A stretch of DNA of 64,000 bases from Muribaculaceae bacterium (GTDB taxonomy: Bacteria; Bacteroidota; Bacteroidia; Bacteroidales; Muribaculaceae), in NCBI GenBank assembly GCA_017405965.1, contig JAFQZK010000025.1, positions 61,170 to 125,169 of the forward strand. The letters are read 5' to 3'. The translations under genes were made by a program, and so were the position numbers. Positions 4,045 to 16,151 of the stretch are shown here, piece after piece. The notes beneath the pieces are model-generated. The model was not told where the DNA came from, did not search any database, and worked only from the letters and a program-made list of their open reading frames with translations. How positions within the stretch are numbered: position 1 is the stretch's first letter; each line of letters begins with the position of its first letter.

Positions 4045-5055
4045 ATGACTAAAACTAAATGGATCATTGGCGGTATCGCCGCCCTGGTAATCATTCTTGC
4101 GGCATGTGCCGCACCTTATTTCTTCATCGGCGCCCCTGCCGAGGGCGTTGTCAAGGTGCGTAAAGGCAGCACCATCGACATGATCAGCGACAGCATCCAG
4201 GCTAACGTTGACGCCACCTTCGGCAAACGAGTGGCCACGATGATGAACCTGATGGGCGCCAAGGTCGAGAACCGTGAGGGTGCCTTCCGCATCAAGCCGG
4301 GCATGTCGCCTTTCACCGCCGCCCGCCGCATCAAGAACGGCGTGCAGGACGGCATCCGCTTCACTTTCAACAACGTGCGCACCCTCGACGAGTGGACACA
4401 GCGCTGGGGCGACACCTTCATGGAAGGCCCCGACAACATGCGCAAGGCATTGAAAGACAGCGCCACCTGCGCCAAATACGGCAAGACACCCGAGACCATC
4501 GCCTGCTTGCTGATGCCCGACACCTACGAGTTCTACTGGAACATCAGTCCCGAGAAAATGCTCGACCGCATGTTCGACTATTACAACGAGTTCTGGACCG
4601 CCGAGCGCAAGGCCAAGGCCGAGCGCTTGGGCCTCACACCCGACCAAGTGGCTACCGTCGCCTCGATTGTCGAGGAAGAGACTGTCAAGGCCGACGAACG
4701 CGGCAAGGTGGCTCGTCTGTACCTGAACCGTTACCAACAGGGCATGCGCCTCCAGGCCGACCCGACGGTGAAATTCGCCATCGGCGACTTCTCCATCAAG
4801 CGCATCACCGTGCCCATGACACAAATCAACTCGCCTTACAACACTTATCGTGTCGACGGCTTGCCTCCCGGTCCTATCCGTCTGCCCGAGAAATCGACCA
4901 TCGATGCCGTGCTCGATGCTCCGCAGCACGACTACCTGTACATGTGTGCAAGGCCCGATTTCAGCGGTTATCACGACTTCACGCGCGACTACAAGTCCCA
5001 CCTGGATAACGCCCACCGCTACCAGGACGCCCTCAACTCGCGTGGCATCAAGTAA
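4045..5055 (+). CDS. mltG: Endolytic peptidoglycan transglycosylase MltG (YceG family)
   Basis: N-terminal TM helix. ASIVEEET, LQADPTV and SPYNTYRVDGLPPGPI are YceG/MltG hallmarks. Confidence 0.9.
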   Translation: MTKTKWIIGGIAALVIILAACAAPYFFIGAPAEGVVKVRKGSTIDMISDSIQANVDATFGKRVATMMNLMGAKVENREGAFRIKPGMSPFTAARRIKNGVQDGIRFTFNNVRTLDEWTQRWGDTFMEGPDNMRKALKDSATCAKYGKTPETIACLLMPDTYEFYWNISPEKMLDRMFDYYNEFWTAERKAKAERLGLTPDQVATVASIVEEETVKADERGKVARLYLNRYQQGMRLQADPTVKFAIGDFSIKRITVPMTQINSPYNTYRVDGLPPGPIRLPEKSTIDAVLDAPQHDYLYMCARPDFSGYHDFTRDYKSHLDNAHRYQDALNSRGIK

Positions 5056-5113
5056 TTGTTAACTGACAATATCATGCTGTGATACTTTTCACGGCCTAAA
5101 ACAATACAACAAT

Positions 5114-5362
5114 ATGGAAAAAGAAGAAAAAATCGTCGTGCTGGAGAAATATGCCAGTGCCATCGACGCCAACATCGTCAAGGGAGCCCTCGAGGCCAGC
5201 GGCATCCCCGCAGGAGTGATCGTTGACAGTACCGCCAACGCCATCTGGATGGCTCCTGCCAGGGTCGTTGTCTTTGAGCGCGACCTGGAACTGGCAAAGC
5301 AGGTCATCAGCGAGAATGGCGAGGACAGCATCGACGCTATCGAGGACACAACCGACGAGTGA
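5114..5362 (+). CDS. DUF2007-like putative signal-transducing small protein
   Basis: 82 aa. The YASAIDANIVKGALEASGIPAGVIVD pattern is typical of DUF2007. Confidence 0.55.
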   Translation: MEKEEKIVVLEKYASAIDANIVKGALEASGIPAGVIVDSTANAIWMAPARVVVFERDLELAKQVISENGEDSIDAIEDTTDE

Positions 5363-5422
5363 ATATACTAAAAAGGGGATTTCTTCGTTATACTATTATC
5401 AGCAACATCTATAGATAACGAT

Positions 5423-6454
5423 ATGACAACCTATCTGCGTCACTTGATATTACTGGCTGTTTGGGCTGTGGCACTGTTTGCCGTGGCCGATAACGGCTCT
5501 GGCACCACGGCCTATAATTTCCTGAACGTCCCCTCGTCGAGCCACGTCTATGGTTTGGGCGGTCACAACCTCACCATCATCGACGACGACATCAACCTGG
5601 TTGAACAGAACCCGGCCCTGCTGGGTCCCGAGTATGACCACCAGGTGGGACTGAACTACATGCGCTACATCGGTGAGACCAACTTCGCCGGTCTGCGCTA
5701 CGGTCAGGGCGTCAGCGAGCATGGTGCAGTGGCCGTGGGCATCCAGTACTTCGGTTACGGGAATATTCAAGGCGCCGACATGGACGGCACCCTCACGGGC
5801 AAGTTCAGCGCCAGCGACATGGCGTTCAGCCTCACCTACAGCCACGACATCAGCGAGAAATTCCGCGGCGGTATCACCGTCAAGTACCTCTACTCCAAGT
5901 ATGAGGACTACTCCGCCGGTGCCGTAGCGGCCGACCTGGGTATCAACTTCTATGACCCCGACCATGAGTTTTCGGCCTCGCTGGTGGCCAAGAACCTGGG
6001 AGGTCAGGTGAAGAAGTTCAACGACTACAAGGACAACCTGCCATGGGACATCCAGGTAGGTTTCAGCAAGATGCTGGGCATGGCCCCCATCCGCCTGCAT
6101 GTCACGGCCTATGAACTGGCCCGTTGGAGTTCACCCTACTACAAGATCCAGGATGTCAACAACCCCAACAGCGACCTGATCAAGAAAGAATCGTTCGGCA
6201 GCAACCTGTTGCGCCACCTCGTGTTCGGTGTCGATATCCTGCCCAGCAACAACATTTATCTGGGCCTCGGTTACAACTACCGCACCCGTTCCGACATGGC
6301 CACCTACAAGCGCGACTTCATGTCGGGCCTCTCGGTGGCAGGCGGCCTGAAAGTGAAGGCATTCGGCATCGGGGCCGCTTATGCCCGCCCCCATACCGGC
6401 GCATCCACTTTCATGTTCAACCTCACCACCAGCATTGGCGAACTCGTGAAATAA
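5423..6454 (+). CDS. porQ: Type IX secretion system outer-membrane protein PorQ-like
   Basis: Signal peptide. N-terminal TAYNFLNVPSSSHVYGLGGHNLTIIDDDINLVEQNPALLG signature. 343-aa beta-barrel-like composition with alternating aromatic residues. Confidence 0.6.
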   Translation: MTTYLRHLILLAVWAVALFAVADNGSGTTAYNFLNVPSSSHVYGLGGHNLTIIDDDINLVEQNPALLGPEYDHQVGLNYMRYIGETNFAGLRYGQGVSEHGAVAVGIQYFGYGNIQGADMDGTLTGKFSASDMAFSLTYSHDISEKFRGGITVKYLYSKYEDYSAGAVAADLGINFYDPDHEFSASLVAKNLGGQVKKFNDYKDNLPWDIQVGFSKMLGMAPIRLHVTAYELARWSSPYYKIQDVNNPNSDLIKKESFGSNLLRHLVFGVDILPSNNIYLGLGYNYRTRSDMATYKRDFMSGLSVAGGLKVKAFGIGAAYARPHTGASTFMFNLTTSIGELVK

Positions 6455-6586
6455 CCCACGATTCAACCCATCGTTTACACGACACAACACAACCCCGCGC
6501 ATGTCCACTGCATGGCACGGGGTTGATTCATCTTGCCGTCAAACAAAAAAACGCATCCAATTAACGTATTGCAATGAAAAAAACAG

Positions 6587-6594
6587 TAACTTTG
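6587..6594 (+). promoter_or_regulatory. Bacteroidota -7 promoter box (TAACTTTG)
   Basis: Exact TAnnTTTG match 32 bp upstream of ATG 6626. Confidence 0.45.
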
Positions 6595-6625
6595 TAGTTT
6601 CAAACATGTTTTTCTCATTTAGACT

Positions 6626-7174
6626 ATGCACAACACCAGCAAACAATATGACGAGGTGATTGCCGTGTGCCGTGAGCTGTTCATCAACAAGATGAAGGAT
6701 TACGGTCCCTCGTGGCGCATCCTGCGGCCGCGTTCGGTTACCGACCAGATCTTCATCAAGGCCAAGCGCATCCGCACCCTGGAACTCAACGGCGAGACCA
6801 AGGTGGGTGAAGGCATCTGGCCCGAATTCATCGGGATCATCAACTACGGCATCATCGGGATGATTCAGCTGCAGTTGGGTTACACCGACACGGTGGACAT
6901 CACCCGCGAGGAAGCCCTGGAACTCTACGACAAACACATCAAGGCCACCAAGGACCTCATGATTGCCAAGAACACCGACTATGGTGAGGCATGGCGCGAC
7001 ATGCGCATCTCGAGTTATACCGACCTGATTCTGACCAAGATTCAGCGCACCAAGGAGATTGAGAATCACAACGGTGCCACTCTCGTGAGCGAGGGTATCG
7101 ACGCCAACTACCAGGACATGATCAACTACAGCGTGTTCGCTCTGATCAAGCACAACGAGGGAATCGGCGAATAA
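6626..7174 (+). CDS. DUF1599 domain protein
   Basis: KMKDYGPSWRILRPRSVTDQIFIKAKRIRTLE and a second half-repeat DYGEAWRDMRISSYTDLILTKIQRTKEIE form the duplicated DUF1599 pattern. Confidence 0.65.
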   Translation: MHNTSKQYDEVIAVCRELFINKMKDYGPSWRILRPRSVTDQIFIKAKRIRTLELNGETKVGEGIWPEFIGIINYGIIGMIQLQLGYTDTVDITREEALELYDKHIKATKDLMIAKNTDYGEAWRDMRISSYTDLILTKIQRTKEIENHNGATLVSEGIDANYQDMINYSVFALIKHNEGIGE

Positions 7175-7220
7175 CCGCCAATTTGCCGATGCCCACTAAA
7201 ACTAAGGATTAAAAACTGAA

Positions 7221-8552
7221 ATGACCATCAAGGCTATCATCAATGCCGTCAAGGGCGAGACGTGGTGTCGCCTGTTGACCACCCTCATGAGGCTCGTCGT
7301 GGGTGGCTTGTTTGTCTTCTCGGGATTCACCAAGGCGGTGGACCCCTGGGGCACCTGCTACAAAATCACCGACTACCTCAACGCCATGGGTATGGAGCAA
7401 TGGGGCGACACGGCCTTGTTCCTCGCTGTGGCTCTTGCGGCCCTCGAGTTCATGGTCGGCATGGCCATTGTGGTGGGCGCCTACAGGACGAGCTCGCTGA
7501 TTATCGCCTTACTGATGATGGCAGTGATGACACCGGTCACCCTGTGGCTTGCCATTACCGACGCCGTACCTGACTGCGGCTGCTTCGGCGATGCGCTGCA
7601 CCTGAGCAACTGGGCGACGTTCTTCAAGAACATTTTGCTCATCCTGGGTCTCATCTACCTGCTCATGTTCAACAAGAGCCTCAAGGGCGTCTATGGGCCG
7701 GCGGTGCACTGGATAGTGATGGCGGTATCATTTGCCATGGTGATGGCGGTAGCCTACTACGGCTACTTTGTCCAGCCCCTCATCGATTACAGGCCCTATC
7801 CCGTGGGCACCCGGCTGGCAGACATGAATGTTGCCGACACCGAGGACGAGAACGGCGAGGATGACTTCATCTTCATCTACAGCCGCGACGGTGTGGAGCA
7901 GGAGTTCACCATCGACAGTCTGCCCGACGAGGAAGACGGTTGGGAATACGTCACGCGCTATCACGCACGACGGCCGCACGGCAAAGTCATCATCCAGAAC
8001 GGTGCTTCGCCCAACAGCATCGCCATCCTGGACGAAGAGGGCAACGATGTCACCCTCGACGTGTTGACGCGTAACCGCCACATGGTGTTGCTGCTGTTCC
8101 CTGACCTGCCGGAAGTGGGCGCACTCCATTCATTCGCCCTCAATGAACTGAATGACGCCGCCCTGGTCGCCGATGCCGACGTAGTCGCCCTCACACCCGC
8201 GACGGCCCAGGAAATCGAGCAATGGAAGGATATCTCGATGGCCTCCTACCCGATCTACAACATGGATGACAGCGAACTCAAGATGATTGCCCGCGGCAAT
8301 CCCGCCGTGGTCTATCTCGAGGACGGCACCATCAAGTGGAAACGGACCCTCACCTCGCTCGAGGATGTCGAGCAGCCCGTGGAACTGAACCGGTTGAGCG
8401 ACGATTATGACGCCGACGGCATCATGACACGCCTGATGGCCGCTTTCCTGCTCGCCCTGTTGGCCATCCTGATTCTCAACCGCTCGCACCTGGTGCTGAG
8501 GCATCTTTTCACAAGAAAAAAACCAACGACTAAAGACCAAACTACGATATGA
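7221..8552 (+). CDS. DoxX/MauE-like membrane protein with thioredoxin-fold-like C-terminal domain (BT_3928-like family)
   Basis: Multiple N-terminal TM helices and a DCGCFG motif (MauE/DoxX type). A soluble region follows (HMVLLLFPDLPEVG...), then a terminal TM helix. The stop overlaps the next start (ATGA at 8549-8552). Confidence 0.6.
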   Translation: MTIKAIINAVKGETWCRLLTTLMRLVVGGLFVFSGFTKAVDPWGTCYKITDYLNAMGMEQWGDTALFLAVALAALEFMVGMAIVVGAYRTSSLIIALLMMAVMTPVTLWLAITDAVPDCGCFGDALHLSNWATFFKNILLILGLIYLLMFNKSLKGVYGPAVHWIVMAVSFAMVMAVAYYGYFVQPLIDYRPYPVGTRLADMNVADTEDENGEDDFIFIYSRDGVEQEFTIDSLPDEEDGWEYVTRYHARRPHGKVIIQNGASPNSIAILDEEGNDVTLDVLTRNRHMVLLLFPDLPEVGALHSFALNELNDAALVADADVVALTPATAQEIEQWKDISMASYPIYNMDDSELKMIARGNPAVVYLEDGTIKWKRTLTSLEDVEQPVELNRLSDDYDADGIMTRLMAAFLLALLAILILNRSHLVLRHLFTRKKPTTKDQTTI

Positions 8553-10396
8553 TACTCAAGCAAGGACAAATTATCGACAACAAGTGGAATGTGGTTTACC
8601 CGATCAAGGAAAACCCCTATGCCGAGAGTTACCGCGTCGAGGACGAGAGCGGCAACCCCTACTTCATGAAGATTTACCGCCTCAAGAACACCCCCGAGAA
8701 ACTGATCGAGCAAGGCGATGTCAAGGAAATCATCTGGTCGCTGGCCATCAAGCACAAGAACATCATCAGCCTGGTAGATAACGGCGGTTACAACAACGAG
8801 GAGGGTGAATGCCGCTATATGGTCGCCAACTACTTCAGCGGCGAGCTCCTGAGCGAGATGCTGCAGCGTGAAGGCAAAATCGACCCGAAAGCCGCTACCA
8901 AGATATTCATCGAGATGCTCGAGGGATTGCAGTACATGCACAACATGCCGGGTGGATGCCTGCACAACGACATCACCCCGACCAATGTCATGCTCAGCAG
9001 CAAGACCGGAGGCACGGCCGAACTCATCGACCTGGGACACGTCTCGCAGTGCTTCATGGGCACACCGCCGTTCGACACCGCCGACCTGGATCCGCGCTAT
9101 GCCAGCGGGCAGTCGTTCATCGGCAAATATGATGAGCGCAACGACATCTTCGCCGCTACCGGCGTGTTCTACACCATGCTCACGGGACGTGTGCCCTGGG
9201 ACGTGGAATTCACGCCCGAAATGACGCGTAAAGAGAAAATCAAAATCGTCCAAAAGGCCCGTAGCGAGAAGAGCGAAATCAATGTCGATGACATCGAGGA
9301 CGAGAAACTCAAGAACATCATCTTGAAGGGATTGTCCCTAGGGTACAACGACCGCTACAGCAGTGTCGAGAAACTGCTGAGCGACCTCATCGAGGGAGAC
9401 GAGAGCGACCTGGCGAATGAAATCCGCAGCAAGTTGAAGGCCATGCAGGACGAGGAAGACGATCCGTTCGGCGACAGTCCGTTCAACCTTCCCGACGACT
9501 CTGCACCCGGCAGTTTCCGTTCTCAGGCTGCCAGTGAGACCAGCGCCGATGTCGAGGTCAAGCGCGGCGGTGGTAACGGATTTGCCGACATTGCCGGCAT
9601 GGACGAGTTGAAGGACATGCTGCGCAAGCGTGTCATCCTCATCCTCCAGGACAAGGAACTGGCCGAGAAGTACAAACTCACGCCGCCCAACGGCATGCTG
9701 CTCTACGGCCCTCCCGGCTGCGGCAAGAGTTTCTTTGCCGAGAAGTTTGCCGAGGAAACGGGCTTCAACTTCATTCTTGTCAAGGCCAGCGACCTGGGCT
9801 CCATCTACATCCACGGCTCACAAGGCAAAATCGCCGACCTGTTCAAGAAAGCCGAGGAGAATGCACCGTCGGTACTGTGCTTCGACGAGTTCGACGCCTT
9901 CGTTCCCAGCCGTTCGGGCGACCTGGGCAGCAACCAGGCCGGTGAGGTCAACGAGTTCCTCACCCAACTCAACAACTGCTCCAAGCGAGGCATCTTTGTC
10001 ATCGCCACCAGCAACCGCCCCGACAAGGTGGATCCCGCAGTGCTGCGCACGGGCCGCATCGACAAGCAGGTGTATGTGCCCATGCCCGACGAGACCGCCC
10101 GCAAACTCATGTTCGAGCTCTACCTCAAGGACCGCCCCTGTGAGGAGATTGACAGCGAAGCGCTGGCCAAGAAGGCCGATGGCTACGTCGCCAGCGACAT
10201 TTCCTACGTCGTGAACGAGGCCGCCACCATCGCCGCCTTCAACCACGAGAACATCACCCAGGAGTTGCTGATCAAGACCATCGAGGGCATCAAGCCGTCG
10301 ATTAACAAGGAACTGCTCAAGGAATATGAGGAAATGCGCGACAAGATGGAAGGCATCAGCCGCAGCAACAGCCTCCCCCACATCGGGTACAGATGA
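8549..10396 (+). CDS. Fusion protein: Hanks-type Ser/Thr protein-kinase-like domain (aa ~1-280), acidic linker, then classical AAA+ ATPase (aa ~345-615)
   Basis: Kinase motifs: YFMKIY (VAIK-like Lys), catalytic loop LHNDITPTN (nt 8963-), DLG (nt 9029-), NDIFAATGVFYTMLTGRVPW (subdomain IX). AAA motifs: Walker A GPPGCGKS (nt 9707-9730), Walker B VLCFDEFDA, sensor-1 VIATSNRP, second region of homology PAVLRTGRIDK. Confidence 0.8.
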   Translation: MILKQGQIIDNKWNVVYPIKENPYAESYRVEDESGNPYFMKIYRLKNTPEKLIEQGDVKEIIWSLAIKHKNIISLVDNGGYNNEEGECRYMVANYFSGELLSEMLQREGKIDPKAATKIFIEMLEGLQYMHNMPGGCLHNDITPTNVMLSSKTGGTAELIDLGHVSQCFMGTPPFDTADLDPRYASGQSFIGKYDERNDIFAATGVFYTMLTGRVPWDVEFTPEMTRKEKIKIVQKARSEKSEINVDDIEDEKLKNIILKGLSLGYNDRYSSVEKLLSDLIEGDESDLANEIRSKLKAMQDEEDDPFGDSPFNLPDDSAPGSFRSQAASETSADVEVKRGGGNGFADIAGMDELKDMLRKRVILILQDKELAEKYKLTPPNGMLLYGPPGCGKSFFAEKFAEETGFNFILVKASDLGSIYIHGSQGKIADLFKKAEENAPSVLCFDEFDAFVPSRSGDLGSNQAGEVNEFLTQLNNCSKRGIFVIATSNRPDKVDPAVLRTGRIDKQVYVPMPDETARKLMFELYLKDRPCEEIDSEALAKKADGYVASDISYVVNEAATIAAFNHENITQELLIKTIEGIKPSINKELLKEYEEMRDKMEGISRSNSLPHIGYR

Positions 10397-10443
10397 GACT
10401 TTAGACATTAGACTTTAGATTAATCATTAAACTTCACATAGAT

Positions 10444-10860
10444 ATGGACTTAAACAAACTGATGATGGATTTTTTGGCCGAAGAAGGGTTCCGTCCCCAC
10501 GAGACCCCCTTTGGCATCGCGTTCAAGAACGAGGGTTTCAATTTCCTCTATTTCAAGGACGAAGACGACGAGCAGTACTTCAGGCTCATGATGCCTGCCA
10601 TCTTTGATGTCACCGAGGACAACGAGGACACCATCATGCGCGTGATGAACGAAGTGAACAGCACCATCAAGGTGGTGAAACTCTACACCATGGACATGGA
10701 AGACCCCGAAGGCAAGAAGGAGACTTCGGTGTGGGTGGCCTTTGAAATCCTGGCCGACACCACGCCCGAACTCAGCGACATCGTGCCCCGTGCCATCGCC
10801 CTGCTCATGGGTGGCCGTCATGCCTTCCTGACCAAGCTAGAGGAGATTGCCGACAATTGA
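10444..10860 (+). CDS. YbjN-like (type III secretion chaperone-like fold) small acidic protein
   Basis: 138 aa and acidic. The inferred alpha-beta3-alpha-beta2-alpha pattern (LMMDFLAEEGF / GIAFKNEGFNFLYF / YFRLMMPAIF / IMRVMNEVNSTIK / VWVAFEILAD / IVPRAIALLMGGRHAFLTKLEE) resembles the YbjN family. This is an assignment by pattern only. Confidence 0.4.
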   Translation: MDLNKLMMDFLAEEGFRPHETPFGIAFKNEGFNFLYFKDEDDEQYFRLMMPAIFDVTEDNEDTIMRVMNEVNSTIKVVKLYTMDMEDPEGKKETSVWVAFEILADTTPELSDIVPRAIALLMGGRHAFLTKLEEIADN

Positions 10861-10901
10861 TGACGCAGCCCCAGCGGCCGTAACATCACCCGCATCAAGA
10901 A

Positions 10902-10996
10902 CAGGCTGTGACATAATTCAGTGTCGCAGAAATAAACCGTGCTACGCACGGGAAATTATACAAATTTGCTTCCCGCCCGTCAGGGCGGTTTTTTTT
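10902..10996. repeat. Truncated copy of the nested-palindrome intergenic element seen at 61801-61946
   Basis: caggctgtgacataatt ... aaccgtgctacgcacgggaaatta ... cccgcccgtcagggcgg aligns block by block with the reverse complement of 61801-61946 (aaggctgtgccataatt ... aaccgtgctatcgcacgggaaatta ... cccgcccaacgggcgg). Confidence 0.55.
10973..10996 (+). terminator. Rho-independent terminator after the YbjN-like gene
   Basis: Hairpin ccgccc-gtca-gggcgg followed by T8. Confidence 0.65.
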
Positions 10997-11140
10997 CATG
11001 CAAAACTACGACACAGACACAGCAGACCTTCGGCCTGCATTCTCGGCATTTACCGGACGCTGATGATCAAAAATGATTTTCTTTGATTGCTTGCGAGCAA
11101 TCCTCCTGATACCATTGCGCCAACCGTCGATTCCCAAAAA

Positions 11141-11176
11141 GAATTTGCAGCAAAAGTCTTTTTTTGCTGCAAATTC
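11141..11176 (-). terminator. Terminator hairpin downstream of the C10-LRR-dockerin gene
   Basis: 15-bp stem gaatttgcagcaaaa / ttttgctgcaaattc. On the minus strand it is followed by TTTTT. Confidence 0.55.
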
Positions 11177-11295
11177 TTTAGATTCCGTAAAAAATAATTA
11201 GACACTCCTTACTCTCAGGTGGTCGCTATGGTTTCTTGTTTCCAGATGAACCAAATAATCTGGAGTTTCCAGACCGAACTTTTAATAACTAATAA

Positions 11296-13413
11296 TTAAG
11301 AACCAAGAATAATATCGACCACAGCATTCACATCGGCGATGTTCACCTCACCGTCACCGTTCACGTCAAATGATTCGTCACCTCCCATGCCGCTCAGGAT
11401 AATGTCGATCACTGCATTCACGTCGGCAATGTTCACCTCGCCGTCACCGTTCACGTCACCGTTCACGGCCACGTCATCCAAAATGATGATATTATCAAAC
11501 AGTGTCCATATATCGGCACAATAGTAATCGTCGAACGATATCTCGGGCACAATCAAAGTCGTTGATGAATAACAATTGCTGGGGAAGGTCTCCTCGCTGT
11601 CCACCACCGGGGGAAGTTCGGGATACATCTTCAAGCGGCTCAGCGACCGGCAACCGACAAAGGCATTCGGTCCTATCGAGTCCACACGCAGGCCCACCGT
11701 CACGTCTTGCAGTGATATGCAATTCGAGAACAATTCCCTGCCGATTACCCTCAGGTTGTTACCGATGACCACCTCACTCAACTTGCGGCAGTTGGCAAAT
11801 GCCCTGTCGGCTATCTCTTCCACACCGTTCCCGGTAGTCAATCGCGTCATAGCGCTGCAATTCATGAAGGCACCTTCATCGATACGCTTCATGCTCGACG
11901 GTAATGCCAGTTGACTCAACAGGCTGCAACCGTAGAAGGCATAGTAGCCGATTTTCTCCACGCGGCGTCCCATGGTCACCGTACTCATCAGTCTGCAATT
12001 CAAGAAGGCGAAGTCAGCAATCTCGGTCACCCCGTCAGGGATGTTGATAGCCCTCAGCGCGGTACAATCCTTGAAGGCGTATTTGCCGATGCGCTTGATT
12101 GTCGGCGGCAAGGTGACAGTCCTCAATGAGGTGCAGTTCTTGAAGGCTCCGTCGGCGATGGCAGTGACAGGATAGGTCACACCTTGGCTGGTCACCTCAC
12201 TGGGGATGACGAGATTGCCACTGTAGGAACCGTATCGCCTTTCACGCGTGGTAACCGTGGCTTCATGGCCATTCAACTTGTAGCACACGCCATCTACATC
12301 GATGTCCCAAAGGGGAACATCCTCGGCTGGGTACAGCCTGTACAGCATCGACTGACCATAGGAGAATGACATGCCGGCAACATCAAAGGCGTCCAGTAAA
12401 AAATAGTCATTATAGTTGCCTTCCCAGCCCCAATTGATATGGAAGAGCATGCCGATACAACCATCCACGACATAGGCATGACCGCCCCCTTCACCAGAAC
12501 CGCAATACAGGATGGGACGGCCCTGAGTCAAATCCTCGTGCATCATGGCCAACCATTCCAGGGTTTCATAGTCGTCGCGGTGAAGGAACCGCATCGCCTG
12601 GTTATAACCGAGCAGCATCATGGCCGAATACTGATTCCAAGTGCCGGATCCGCTGCCGTCGGTGCCATACTCCATCGAGGACGCCTGGCCGCAATAGCGC
12701 ATCAGCGTGGCGACCGCCATGCCCTGAGCAGGCGTGTAAGGCATGGTATAGCCGTCACACATCTCGGCCCAGTCGACGGGGGTTGCGGGCAAAGCAGGGA
12801 GAAAAATATGATAAAAACCGGTTGTATAGGCAGGAAGATCGGGCAACACATCAGGATAACGCCAGTAATACATCACCTGGGCCATCGCGGTAGCGACACA
12901 GCCCGTCACGCAACGCACGCCCTTGTCGAACGGGCACAGGTTATAGTAGGGTGCACTCTGTGACCAGGTACAGGTCAACAGCGGTGAAACGACAACGACC
13001 TCGTTAGCGTCACGAGGTTTCACGCGGGCATCAGGATGGGTTTGCAGCCACTCCATCTGCTCCTTGTAGTGGGACAGGAGGCCTCGCATATTGCAGGGTA
13101 CGGTCTCGGGATCAAACTGCCCGTCGCCAAAGCCCAAAACGCTTTCGGCACGGTCATCGCCTGCCAAAATCACATAACTGTCATCGGCATTAAAGATGTA
13201 GTATGCGGGCATGTCTTGAATTCCCTTTTCCACTTGGACCAACTGCAACACCGAGGCTGCCGGTGCTGCCTTGAGATGACCCTGTGCGACTTGACGGTTC
13301 AAGAACTGCGAGGCACACTGGGCTGCCGTGGCCTCATCAACAGGGGCTGCCCATGCCGACAACTGTGCCATGGCCACAACTATCATTATAAGAATGGGTA
13401 ATCGTTTCATCAT
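11296..13413 (-). CDS. C10 (streptopain/SpeB-like) cysteine peptidase, then BspA-type leucine-rich repeats, then a tandem dockerin-type-I-like repeat
   Basis: Signal peptide MMKRLPILIMIVVAMAQLSAWA. Catalytic Cys in CVTGCVATAMAQVMYYWRYP, His in GGGHAYVVDGC, then HINWGWEG. About 8 LRR_5-type repeats (FKNCTSLRTVTLP..IKRIGKYAFKDCTALRAINIP...). The C-terminus is GDVNGDGEVNIADVNAVIDIILSG...FDVNGDGEVNIADVNAVVDIILGS (nt 11296-11460). Confidence 0.85.
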   Translation of the reverse strand: MMKRLPILIMIVVAMAQLSAWAAPVDEATAAQCASQFLNRQVAQGHLKAAPAASVLQLVQVEKGIQDMPAYYIFNADDSYVILAGDDRAESVLGFGDGQFDPETVPCNMRGLLSHYKEQMEWLQTHPDARVKPRDANEVVVVSPLLTCTWSQSAPYYNLCPFDKGVRCVTGCVATAMAQVMYYWRYPDVLPDLPAYTTGFYHIFLPALPATPVDWAEMCDGYTMPYTPAQGMAVATLMRYCGQASSMEYGTDGSGSGTWNQYSAMMLLGYNQAMRFLHRDDYETLEWLAMMHEDLTQGRPILYCGSGEGGGHAYVVDGCIGMLFHINWGWEGNYNDYFLLDAFDVAGMSFSYGQSMLYRLYPAEDVPLWDIDVDGVCYKLNGHEATVTTRERRYGSYSGNLVIPSEVTSQGVTYPVTAIADGAFKNCTSLRTVTLPPTIKRIGKYAFKDCTALRAINIPDGVTEIADFAFLNCRLMSTVTMGRRVEKIGYYAFYGCSLLSQLALPSSMKRIDEGAFMNCSAMTRLTTGNGVEEIADRAFANCRKLSEVVIGNNLRVIGRELFSNCISLQDVTVGLRVDSIGPNAFVGCRSLSRLKMYPELPPVVDSEETFPSNCYSSTTLIVPEISFDDYYCADIWTLFDNIIILDDVAVNGDVNGDGEVNIADVNAVIDIILSGMGGDESFDVNGDGEVNIADVNAVVDIILGS

Positions 13414-14414: not shown

Positions 14415-16151
14415 TCATTTCCCTGACAAAATGATATTGATTAGGGCATTGACATCGCTGATGTTCACCTCGCCGTCGTCATCCACATCGAACACTTCGT
14501 CGCTCATGGCGCCCGATTTCAAGATGGCATCGATCAAGGCGTTCACGTCGCTGATGTTCACCTCGCCGTCACGGTTCACGTCACCCTTCTGATAGATGGG
14601 GGTTTGCGCTTTCATGAACCAGAAACCGGCCACCTGAGCCTGGGCGTCGACGGTCATCTCGGTTATGGGCTTGTTCATGTAGCCACCGGTATAGACCATG
14701 GCAGGGGGTGTCGAGTTGTTGGTGAGCGAGTCAAGACTGCCCTGGGGCCACAAGTCATACTTGTTTGAACCGTCCGACAACTGGTTGTCGGCAGGGATGA
14801 GCGTCATGCGCTGGTGGTTGCTGCTGTTGTTGGGGGTATTGTCATCCCAAGCCTTCTTGTCATAATCCACATGCAGGATCATGATGCCCTCGGCCGACAG
14901 GAATGCGTCCCATCCGGTCTTGACACGATATTCCAGCAGGTAGTACTCATCAGGGTTGGCATCGTTGGTCACCTTGACGGCGGTGCCGCCATCGGTGTTG
15001 AGCGGAGCCATGCTGTAATAGCTGTTCTCCTCGGCATCGATGAGGTCCATCCAACCCATGAAGTGACGCTCATAGGAAGTGTAGCCTGCCGGACGATGGC
15101 CGTTGTTCAGGTAACAGCCGTTGTCCATGATGTCCCAACTGCTCATGCCATAGGCGTAGCTGTTGTTGGTCGGATAGAAATCGGGCAGACCCAGACAATG
15201 ACCAAACTCGTGGCAGAAGGTACCCACACCGTCGATATTCGTGCTGGTGTTGTTGCTGCCTTCCAACTCGTTGAACACGGCAAACCGGTCGATGGTCACC
15301 CCGTTGAGTTGGAACGGTCCAATGGTGCTGCAACCCCAATCGTGGGCTTCTTTCATATCCCACTGGCAGGGCCACACGCTCTCGGGCACCGTGCGCCAAG
15401 CCTGAGATTCACCCACACCGGCATAGAGCACGACCACAACATCGACAAGGCCGTCGCCGTCGTTGTCATAGTTGGAGAAATCCACATTCCCTGAAATGCC
15501 CATGCAAGCGTCGTAAATCATGGTACCCAACTGGGTATCAAGTTCCTGACCGTAGCGATAGACGTTGGCACCATAGAAAGCGCGGGTCTGCGGCAACTGC
15601 ACCGGGCCCAGGATGTCGAAGCGCGGCGAGAATTTTCCGCGTGACTGCGACTCGAAGTAGTGCAGACAGCTGTACTCCTTCTCATTGAACTGGTTCTGGA
15701 AGGTTGACAGCGGGTTCTCGTCAATGAACTGGACATCGGTGTAATTCACAAGGATGATAGGGATGCGCGGGGAACCCAGTGTAGGCACCTGCGGCGAGTC
15801 GTTCTCGTCGGTGCGGCGCGGCATGCGGCTGGCGCCTGCGCCCAGCGTCATCTGTTGACGATAGGCTGTGACAAAGGCTTGCTCTTCAATGCCACGGTTA
15901 CCCTTGTCATGGGCACGCACATCGCTCAACGAGCCACCGACCGTGTAGCAGTAGTCACCGTTCAGGGCCCGGGCGACCGTCAGTCCGTCAAGCGTCATCA
16001 GCGAGTGGTTGAACTCCCCACCCCGCATCTCCAGCGTCACCGTCGTGCCGTCGCTCTGCACATGGGTAAAGGGAATAGATTTGGCGGGTACTGCCCAGGC
16101 CATGCTCGAGCATACCACAGCCGTCAGAAATATCAATAAGAATCTTTTCAT
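14415..16151 (-). CDS. M6-family-like (immune inhibitor A-like) zinc metallopeptidase with tandem dockerin-type-I-like repeat
   Basis: Signal peptide MKRFLLIFLTAVVCSSMAWA. Zincin motif HEFGHCLGLPDFY. The C-terminus is GDVNRDGEVNISDVNALIDAILKSG...FDVDDDGEVNISDVNALINIILSGK (nt 14415-14585). Confidence 0.8.
   Translation of the reverse strand: MKRFLLIFLTAVVCSSMAWAVPAKSIPFTHVQSDGTTVTLEMRGGEFNHSLMTLDGLTVARALNGDYCYTVGGSLSDVRAHDKGNRGIEEQAFVTAYRQQMTLGAGASRMPRRTDENDSPQVPTLGSPRIPIILVNYTDVQFIDENPLSTFQNQFNEKEYSCLHYFESQSRGKFSPRFDILGPVQLPQTRAFYGANVYRYGQELDTQLGTMIYDACMGISGNVDFSNYDNDGDGLVDVVVVLYAGVGESQAWRTVPESVWPCQWDMKEAHDWGCSTIGPFQLNGVTIDRFAVFNELEGSNNTSTNIDGVGTFCHEFGHCLGLPDFYPTNNSYAYGMSSWDIMDNGCYLNNGHRPAGYTSYERHFMGWMDLIDAEENSYYSMAPLNTDGGTAVKVTNDANPDEYYLLEYRVKTGWDAFLSAEGIMILHVDYDKKAWDDNTPNNSSNHQRMTLIPADNQLSDGSNKYDLWPQGSLDSLTNNSTPPAMVYTGGYMNKPITEMTVDAQAQVAGFWFMKAQTPIYQKGDVNRDGEVNISDVNALIDAILKSGAMSDEVFDVDDDGEVNISDVNALINIILSGK

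Follow-up and report, generated by a model that had tools for sequence, protein, structure and literature searches.

What can a bacterium do with a protein that joins a protein kinase to an unfoldase-type ATPase, and which neighbouring genes act with it? This question is raised by a kinase–AAA+ fusion gene in a 64,000-nucleotide stretch of Muribaculaceae DNA (assembly GCA_017405965.1, contig JAFQZK010000025.1, positions 61,170 to 125,169 of the forward strand), here called the window. A preliminary description, made from the sequence alone, had read the fusion as the centre of a membrane-linked module of three genes, with a membrane-protein gene overlapping its start and a small acidic-protein gene behind it. 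All three open reading frames lie where they had been placed (443, 615 and 138 residues; Table 1). Gene order in related loci indicates that the functional unit is a cassette of two genes rather than three, namely the fusion and the small gene, which encodes a protein of the YbjN/type III secretion system (T3SS) chaperone fold. Our preferred reading of this cassette, which we hold to be evenly balanced between right and wrong, is an adaptor-assisted unfoldase with a kinase N-domain that probably feeds the ClpP peptidase.

Both halves of the fusion matched Pfam families well above the cut-off, Pkinase with 85.8 bits (cut-off 31.7) over residues 31–274 and AAA (PF00004) with 118.9 bits (cut-off 21.2) over residues 383–511, while the AAA_lid_3 match, at 26.1 bits, fell slightly below its cut-off of 27.2. 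The N-terminal half, called kinase-like on the strength of its motifs, does model as a kinase: an AlphaFold model of residues 1–295, built from a 41-sequence alignment, reached a predicted local distance difference test score (pLDDT) of 94.6 and a predicted template-modelling (TM) score (pTM) of 0.91, and its top match in the PDB was the catalytic domain of M. tuberculosis PknB (E 1e-17, TM 0.75/0.84). The model places this half in the Hanks-type protein-kinase fold, as a PknB-like member. It carries the non-RD catalytic loop HNDITPTN, DLG, K41, E60, N146 and D199 of subdomain IX. Among solved structures, the AAA half is nearest to the D2 rings of VAT, Cdc48 and p97 (E ~1e-86), and the classical-clade AAA+ module proved as complete as had been described. 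A sequencing frameshift or assembly artefact joining two genes, a risk that had been raised at the outset, is ruled out by hundreds of full-length homologues. The proposal that one protein combines a kinase with an unfoldase therefore stands to the extent that both modules are apparently intact; the membrane link that went with it does not.

No curated NCBIfam model was reached at its cut-off (CDC48, 187 of 803 bits; FtsH, 153 of 600; IteA, 94 of 510), which puts the fusion outside every named family. The alignment to the CDC48 model TIGR01243 is limited to model positions 452–729, reflecting a single AAA module with a kinase in N-terminal position, and the match to the FtsH model TIGR01241 spans the AAA region only.

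To define the family, 1.84 billion representatives of 50%-identity clusters were searched exhaustively and the best 150 were considered. Proteins of 540–690 residues, the size of the fusion, made up 93 of these 150 and were 23–52% identical to the query. In existing sources the members carry no label more specific than 'AAA family ATPase' or 'transitional endoplasmic reticulum ATPase', and full-text literature searches returned no publication describing a kinase–AAA+ fusion with YbjN, Hsp70 or TerB partners. Judged by these matches the fusion is a large uncharacterised family; with neither a matching curated family nor a published description, the earlier remark that the architecture is uncharacterised holds.

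Conservation was counted in 105 diverse sequences for the wider family and in 79 sequences for the window's Bacteroidales clade. The AAA+ motifs were kept in 84–105 of the 105. Walker A residues were present in 101–105 (the p97-D2-like Cys of GPPGCGK in 101), Walker B D446-E447 and sensor-1 N489 in 104 each, and the Arg fingers R500 and R503 in 103 and 104; pore-loop position Y420 was Y, F or W in 100. All four of the kinase residues K41, D141, N146 and D161 were retained in only 34 of the 105, with Glu at position 141 in 12 more. Because the AAA+ motifs are near-invariant while the kinase residues decay, the motor appears to be the indispensable part of the fusion, and the kinase is apparently always retained as a fold. 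The same count of 34 suggests that phosphotransfer is not essential to the family. Within the Bacteroidales clade, K41, D141, N146 and D161, together with E60, H139, N140, D199 and the L-G after D161, were invariant (79/79). The kinase looks catalytically competent in the window's clade and like a pseudokinase in many other members; its predicted activity in the window's clade is a matter of moderate confidence. The Gly-rich loop, reported as degenerate, has no GxGxxG in the fusion (the segment reads ENPYAESYRV) and no glycine consensus across the 105 sequences. The acidic linker of about 60 residues was also found as described, and has the lowest column identity of the whole protein (0.43–0.51 in the 79 sequences).

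Two further features of the family were seen. Residues 469–478 (positions 9953–9982), between Walker B and sensor-1, form the stretch E-[FM]-L-x-[QR]-[LM]-[ND]-[NED]-C, in which C477 is nearly invariant. It is one of the family's two best-conserved peptide patterns, and lies in the region that we take to be where classical AAA+ proteins carry the inter-subunit-signalling motif. On the Thermococcus peptonophilus plasmid NZ_CP014751 (19420–21431, match H17), the query spans two adjoining genes labelled 'serine/threonine-protein kinase' and 'ATP-binding protein'; this archaeal plasmid may carry the fusion in split form.

The small acidic protein encoded downstream had been likened to YbjN and T3SS chaperones from its sequence pattern. 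Alone, it gave no match in the searched databases, with no Pfam hit even at E 10. Among 26 homologues gathered from related loci, YbjN (PF10722) was matched by 18 (best 2.8e-6) and TY-Chap1 (PF22551) by 15 (best 1.8e-7). The model of the window's protein (pLDDT 91.2) has the order alpha-beta-beta-beta-alpha-beta-beta-alpha, and Foldseek returned a probability of 1.00 against E. coli YbjN (6vu7), Erwinia AmyR (5fr7) and the Vibrio T3SS chaperone VecA (9uwz), with TM scores of 0.54–0.66. Fold model and family-level Pfam matches together bear out the proposed likeness. The gene does directly follow the fusion, starting 47 nt after its stop.

Linkage of the two genes was measured in 80 loci (L001–L080), obtained by scanning one genome per species and coming from rumen and gut Bacteroidales (Muribaculaceae/Sodaliphilus, Prevotella, Rikenellaceae, Alistipes). 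A YbjN-like gene adjoins the fusion in 79 of the 80, lying downstream except in Rikenellaceae and Alistipes, where it is upstream. When all neighbouring open reading frames were clustered, only the fusion and the small gene were common to all contexts. The linkage to a YbjN-type partner holds even at 35–45% fusion identity, with one or two paralogues (L083, L084, L091, L174; family hidden Markov model E 1e-16 to 1e-45). As to synteny outside this strain, then, the pair persists and the membrane-protein gene is limited to one clade. Because of this adjacency, a role for the 138-residue protein as adaptor or substrate-holder is a reasonable prediction.

The link to a peptidase comes from two kinds of observation. 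The fusion of the window ends in I-G-Y plus one residue, and the tripeptide [IV]-G-[FY] falls within the last 16 residues of 86 of the 105 diverse members and 74 of the 79 Bacteroidales members (82–94%, including L001–L080 and the P0241 series). The chance expectation, taken from the frequency of the motif elsewhere in the same proteins, is ~1%. The motif usually follows Pro and a basic residue, is seen with every partner type, and is absent from all long multi-AAA Cdc48-like relatives among the top matches. A passage in PMC9035409 describes how the IGF loops of ClpX and ClpA dock hydrophobic sites of ClpP via the same tripeptide. The second observation is one of gene order: in L076 (Rikenellaceae) and L078 (Alistipes), the YbjN-like gene, the fusion and a clpP gene follow one another in the same orientation, separated by 12 and 27 nt. 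These ClpP genes (L076, 7761–8384; L078, 7797–8393) match PF00574 at E 1.5e-53 and have intact Ser, His and Asp motifs; between the two loci the fusions are 57% identical and the ClpPs 71%. From these observations we tentatively propose, at somewhat less than an even chance, that the fusion is coupled to ClpP, with putative docking via the tail. Proteasome docking of HbYX type was considered as another use of the tail and rejected: the motif is followed by 0–10 residues, and an aromatic that is not fixed at the penultimate position does not make a strict HbYX.

Several points weigh against coupling to ClpP and against the wider reading built on it. The two ClpP-adjacent fusions lack the IGF tail, ending VVEGL (L076) and VVSPL (L078). 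The ClpP-adjacent lineages are thus exactly the tail-less ones, and the two clues to ClpP coincide in no single protein; furthermore, the adjacency is one evolutionary event. The idea that IGF-less members bring their own peptidase was dropped, as no such peptidase accompanies the other tail-less members sampled (L252, L254, L255). Known ClpP partners are ATPases of the HCLR clade that carry the IGF within an internal loop, which sets them apart from a classical-clade protein with the motif in its C-terminal tail. That tail could have another binding partner, such as a chaperone or an adjacent subunit. Finally, with no Gly-rich loop family-wide and the K-D-N-D set complete in a third of the sequences (34/105), the kinase domain may be mainly a binding module.

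The mechanism that we propose builds on the domain folds, the motif conservation, the gene linkage, the tail statistics and the ClpP adjacency in two lineages. Its steps would be as follows. Unfolding: six AAA+ halves would make up one ring of the Cdc48-D2 kind, in which clients are threaded past conserved aromatic pore loops and unfolded. A motor role is supported by the near-invariant AAA+ motifs in the 105 sequences and by the nearest structures being D2 unfoldase rings. Client recognition: the Hanks-type kinase would take the place of the substrate- or adaptor-binding N-domain of other classical AAA+ proteins, and the acidic chaperone-fold protein, probably a dimer, would be an adaptor gripping an extended client peptide, or alternatively would itself be a regulated client. 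That an unfoldase and a peptide-binding adaptor act together on protein clients has, in our judgement, rather better than an even chance. Marking: phosphorylation probably marks the client or the adaptor, or gates the motor, a step proposed because the kinase site is intact in the window's clade. Degradation: the ring probably attaches to ClpP by its basic-[IV]-G-[FY] tail, and the whole would then be a device for targeted degradation.

The use of a kinase with an AAA+ unfoldase has a precedent in McsB and ClpC, according to bioRxiv 10.1101/2022.09.15.508104, in which a kinase-adaptor delivers clients to a ClpP-docking AAA+ unfoldase; in working mode this is the closest analogue. The proposed module resembles McsB–ClpC–ClpP collapsed into a single polypeptide plus an adaptor. 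In the known system, however, the parts are separate polypeptides; in the window the kinase is of the Hanks type and shares one chain with a single ring of the classical clade, whose coupling to ClpP is putative. McsB has a phosphagen-kinase fold, not a Hanks fold, and ClpC is a two-ring ATPase of the HCLR clade.

Cdc48, p97 and VAT share with the fusion the D2-type GPPGCGK Walker A, the arginines of the second region of homology and the use of the N-terminal region as a platform for adaptors or substrates. They differ in having two rings rather than one and a double-psi-barrel N-domain where the window's protein has a kinase, and the TIGR01243 score stays far below its cut-off (187 vs 803 bits). 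Tails of the Cdc48 type are HbYX or PUB-binding, as against the IGF-type tail of the fusion. The transmembrane anchor and the C-terminal M41 zinc peptidase that define FtsH are not found in the fusion. ClpX and ClpA also carry [IV]-G-[FY] after basic residues on a flexible element of a hexameric unfoldase (the hexamer being a prediction for the fusion), but there the motif is in an internal loop rather than a C-terminal tail, and the AAA+ clade is HCLR rather than classical (best matches of the fusion are Cdc48, PAN and FtsH). PrkA/YeaG likewise has an AAA+ and a kinase-type domain in one polypeptide and, according to PMC13001217, a link to stress or proteolysis. Its AAA+ domain is N-terminal, the opposite order to the fusion, and no PrkA family is among the Pfam or NCBIfam matches of the fusion. 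The kinase domain of PrkA is not of Hanks type, and its AAA+ lineage differs.

The 138-residue protein resembles YbjN, AmyR, class I T3SS chaperones and TY-Chap1 in fold, small size and acidity. It differs from YbjN and the T3SS chaperones in that its partner is a kinase–AAA+ protein and not a T3SS ATPase, with no T3SS present, and in that the window's copy does not reach the Pfam thresholds. T3SS chaperones deliver effectors in a partly unfolded state to an ATPase, and the proposed module would work in a similar way, without being a member of that group or of the McsB–ClpC–ClpP group. TY-Chap1 was defined in predicted anti-ADP-ribosylation systems centred on ADP-ribosylglycohydrolase (ARG), and a passage in the paper concerned (Iyer et al. 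2022, PMC9503650) models such chaperones as binding ADP-ribosylated proteins. Five related loci and L078 similarly place the cassette beside ARG genes, the five with NrtR-Nudix as well. The likeness ends there: no mention of a protein kinase or classical AAA+ protein was found in PMC9503650, and most loci, the window included, are without the ARG module.

Distant representatives of the family were sampled for their partner genes, which varied: YbjN-like genes, Hsp70 with TerB, a JAB/E1/DnaJ set and a TIR neighbour were all found. A cassette of Hsp70 (~840 residues), fusion and TerB-like gene occurs in L081, L085, L088 and L254, in three IMG/VR contigs and on the Haliscomenobacter plasmid pHALHY02. 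On the plasmid (L092, NC_015512, 11174–16064) it abuts the BREX genes brxL and pglZ, and in L254 it adjoins a type I HsdR gene. This cassette is often preceded by genes for proteins of ~530 and ~300 residues (L081, L085, L088, L092–L095, L254), and no description of an Hsp70–kinase-AAA+–TerB cassette was found in the literature. In L173 (1–6527), DnaJ, a 268-residue protein, Prok-JAB, ThiF (E1-like) and an SH3_3 membrane protein precede a 50%-identical fusion, an arrangement that, from its domain matches, puts a ubiquitin-like conjugation set beside a Cdc48-like motor in a bacterium. A TIR gene is convergent to the fusion in L176. In L083, an R-P/PTP phosphatase and SIR2 flank a pseudokinase member with two chaperone paralogues. 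Five loci (L064, L067, L068, L070, L079) continue after the cassette with NUDIX-NrtR, a 358-residue protein without Pfam match and ARG (for example L067, 9700–12594), and an ARG gene is also present in L078 (9279–10124). Beside the cassette, a divergent ClpX-like ATPase (443 residues, E 5e-34 to ClpX structures) occurs with a 190-residue protein in two arrangements (L072, 3802–5745; L075, 8878–10810); no relatives of the 190-residue protein were detected. To judge by their domains, the partner sets are modular and chaperone-themed.

Regulated unfolding and degradation in bacteria are thought to rest on ClpXP, ClpAP/CP, Lon, FtsH and HslUV. Taken to its full extent, the reading as an adaptor-assisted unfoldase would describe a new class of widespread, ClpP-coupled degradation machines, consisting of a writer of phospho-marks (or a pseudokinase reader) joined to a Cdc48-like unfoldase, with interchangeable chaperone adaptors (YbjN-type, Hsp70/TerB, DnaJ) and docking to ClpP by the IGF tail, and put to use in regulated proteolysis as well as for execution or clean-up in immune islands associated with NAD/ADP-ribose, TIR, SIR2 and BREX. 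In that extended form the proposal is speculative, and we would not expect all of it to hold. If it is true, a classical-clade AAA+ protein would use the docking solution of ClpX, an unannotated fusion family would extend the short list of bacterial AAA+ degradation machines, and Ser/Thr phosphorylation would be tied directly to proteolysis outside the McsB system of Firmicutes. The relatives in immune islands may also reveal a use of protein unfolding in anti-phage defence. An intact motor with an often dead kinase provides a natural series for the use of pseudokinase N-domains in AAA+ machines. Rumen and gut Bacteroidales, in which the fusion is abundant, matter ecologically and are difficult to work with.

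The strongest rival is about what the cassette does biologically, and leaves room for an unfoldase mechanism. The cassette could be an anti-phage or conflict system. Phage proteins, or modifications induced by phage (e.g. ADP-ribosylation), would be sensed by the chaperone-fold protein or the kinase, and the kinase–AAA+ protein would phosphorylate, unfold or destroy phage or host proteins, aborting infection. The company kept by the wider family is conflict-like (BREX, HsdR, TIR, SIR2 with the phosphatase, and the Prok-JAB/ThiF/DnaJ set), the Hsp70-type fusion is carried by the three IMG/VR contigs, and modular, displaced partner sets with decaying catalytic residues are typical of conflict systems. 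The NUDIX-NrtR/358-residue/ARG genes in five loci fit the ARG-centric systems as a passage in PMC9503650 presents them. PADLOC also gave domain-level matches, of the AAA half to IetA (5.5e-31) and of the kinase half to PD-T4-6 (7e-28). These matches are generic to the two domains: no dedicated PADLOC model spans the fusion, PD-T4-6 is a stand-alone kinase, and the resemblance to IetAS extends neither to an IetS protease partner nor to the NF042959 (IteA) threshold (94 vs 510 bits), both neighbouring genes being without a PADLOC match. The genes of the ARG module match no PADLOC model save for a weak NUDIX match, and PADLOC returned no models for the ClpP or ClpX-like neighbours of YbjN-type loci, where some flanking genes gave 'PDC' matches.

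The distribution of the window's own clade argues further against a conflict system. There, the pair sits at one stable chromosomal site in at least 43 species-level genomes and ~60 metagenome contigs, and its divergence is like that of housekeeping genes (fusion 71–97%, chaperone 79–96%, the upstream membrane protein BT_3928 64–93%), with neither gene changing faster than those beside it. The genes flanking 29 distant YbjN-type loci are for the most part ordinary ones (Na+/H+ exchanger, acyl-CoA dehydrogenase/ETF, glycosyltransferase), with no integrase, transposase or restriction family among their recurrent Pfam families. The 64 kb of the window hold no ARG, NrtR or ClpP homologue, and no close relatives of the fusion were found in phage genomes or IMG/VR. 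A phage origin of the window's type was rejected, given no full-length match in 50,697 phage records and only three distant Hsp70-type copies in IMG/VR. We therefore regard the conflict-system model as unlikely for this cassette; the broader assignment of its role to defence rather than to regulatory or stress proteolysis is possible, and still the less probable of the two.

Another rival does away with proteolysis. The fusion could be a signalling kinase or pseudokinase scaffold, whose AAA+ ring serves as a nucleotide-dependent platform for oligomerisation or switching, with the YbjN-like protein as regulator or phospho-substrate. The kinase site is intact and invariant in the window's clade, the 64-kb window holds no protease of the ClpP type, and YbjN is annotated among 'sensory transduction regulators'; a passage in PMC3181261 describes the nearest structures, E. 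coli YbjN and Erwinia AmyR, as regulators. The pattern of constraint runs the other way. The pore-loop aromatic (100/105) and the residues for ATP hydrolysis and the Arg fingers are more constrained than the kinase, and most of the wider family has lost kinase residues yet kept the AAA+ motifs, the opposite of what a kinase-centred model predicts. The tail motif, and the clpP gene next to the fusion in two lineages, speak for a peptidase. A protein of this kind is therefore improbable, and an unfoldase working with the YbjN-like adaptor remains our preferred reading.

The membrane-linked module of three genes with which the preliminary description began, in which the upstream BT_3928 protein would give membrane or redox input, is very improbable: two-way synteny has largely refuted it, as set out after Table 1.

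Table 1. Positions of the fusion, its parts and its neighbours in the window
Feature	Position	Strand	Basis or remark
-7 promoter motif, Bacteroidota type, TAACTTTG	6587-6594		just upstream of DUF1599; sole one in the region
DUF1599 gene, true conserved partner of BT_3928	6626-7174	+	PF07659, 196 bits
BT_3928-family DoxX/MauE membrane protein, 443 residues; neighbour, outside the conserved module	7221-8552	+	NF045576
Kinase-AAA+ fusion gene, 615 residues, core of the module	8549-10396	+	open reading frame; Pfam Pkinase and AAA
Hanks-type kinase domain, residues 1-282	8549-9394	+	model, motifs; non-RD
Kinase catalytic residues	K41 8669-8671; D141 (in H139-N140-D141) 8969-8971; D161-L-G 9029-9037; N146	+
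Acidic linker, residues 283-345	9395-9583	+	isoelectric point (pI) 4.05; lowest conservation
Classical-clade AAA+ module with lid, residues 346-615	9584-10393	+	PF00004, motifs
AAA+ motifs	Walker A GPPGCGKS 9707-9730; Walker B DE 9884-9889; pore loop Y420-I-H-G; sensor-1 N489; Arg fingers R500/R503	+
C-terminal I-G-Y, residues 612-614, in the tail LPHIGYR before the stop	10382-10390	+	candidate peptidase-docking tripeptide
Partner gene, YbjN/T3SS-chaperone fold (TY-Chap1-like), 138 residues	10444-10860	+	pI 4.31
Intrinsic-terminator-like hairpin (6 GC pairs), then T-run to 10996	10973-10988	+	closes the transcription unit

The protein upstream of the fusion, presented as a polytopic DoxX/MauE-like protein with a CGCFG motif, was recognised as such by Pfam (MauE 60 bits, DoxX 25.8 bits). 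It belongs to the NCBIfam family BT_3928 (NF045576), which it matches with 359.2 bits (cut-off 250) over model positions 2–356 of 358; its motif DCGCFGD is invariant. Its supposed thioredoxin-like domain was not confirmed, the AhpC-TSA match being sub-threshold (E 0.13, 12.6 bits vs 26) and a PDB sequence search empty. DUF1599 ('nucleotide modification associated domain 1') and the BT_3928 DoxX/MauE protein form a tight pair across Bacteroidales (window 6626–8552; L178–L251).

Some features of the locus do join this pair to the cassette. The ATGA overlap of the BT_3928 stop with the fusion start (8549–8552) is real, as is the terminator reported after the third gene, a hairpin followed by a T-run. 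The only promoter motif precedes DUF1599 and one terminator follows the 138-residue gene; the four genes from DUF1599 to that gene are probably transcribed as a unit in this strain, and the adjacency of BT_3928 and the fusion is kept through one clade of ~43 genomes and ~60 metagenome contigs. Outside this clade the association is not seen. Only in the 43 loci whose fusion shares 71% identity or more with that of the window do BT_3928 and DUF1599 adjoin it, and in none of the 37 loci with a fusion of 63% identity or less does BT_3928 lie within 6 kb. The overlap itself occurs in only 5 of the 42 loci with BT_3928–fusion adjacency, the remaining gaps being 2–112 nt. In the reverse synteny test, a metagenome scan seeded with BT_3928, the DUF1599–BT_3928 pair was intact down to 41% BT_3928 identity, and the fusion followed it only at 61% or above. 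Downstream sequence was sufficient, and the fusion absent, in L240, L243, L245, L247 and L248 (41–52% BT_3928 identity) and in L236 (61%). The fusion, moreover, has no transmembrane or membrane-targeting feature. The contact between BT_3928 and the fusion is, on this gene-order evidence, a lineage-specific juxtaposition of two independent pairs, and the three-gene unit with BT_3928 was rejected on the two-way synteny and the non-conserved overlap. A link to the nearby type IX secretion system gene porQ, to YceG or to DUF2007 was likewise discarded as coincidental, these genes being present only in the nearest relative, L001.

Beyond the cassette, no known RNA element was found above threshold in 5000–11500. 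The convergent intergenic region holds a perfect 18-nt inverted repeat (11138–11179), consisting of AAAGAATTTGCAGCAAAA, 6 nt and TTTTGCTGCAAATTCTTT, which gave sub-threshold Rfam matches on both strands and could serve as a terminator in both directions or as a site of protein binding. On the minus strand, 11296–13413 encodes an apparently secreted peptidase with Spi-inhibitor, Peptidase_C10, BspA-type leucine-rich repeats and a C-terminal type I dockerin, and 14415–16151 an apparently secreted Peptidase_M6, also with a C-terminal type I dockerin. In many related loci, relatives of these dockerin peptidases are again found behind the cassette.

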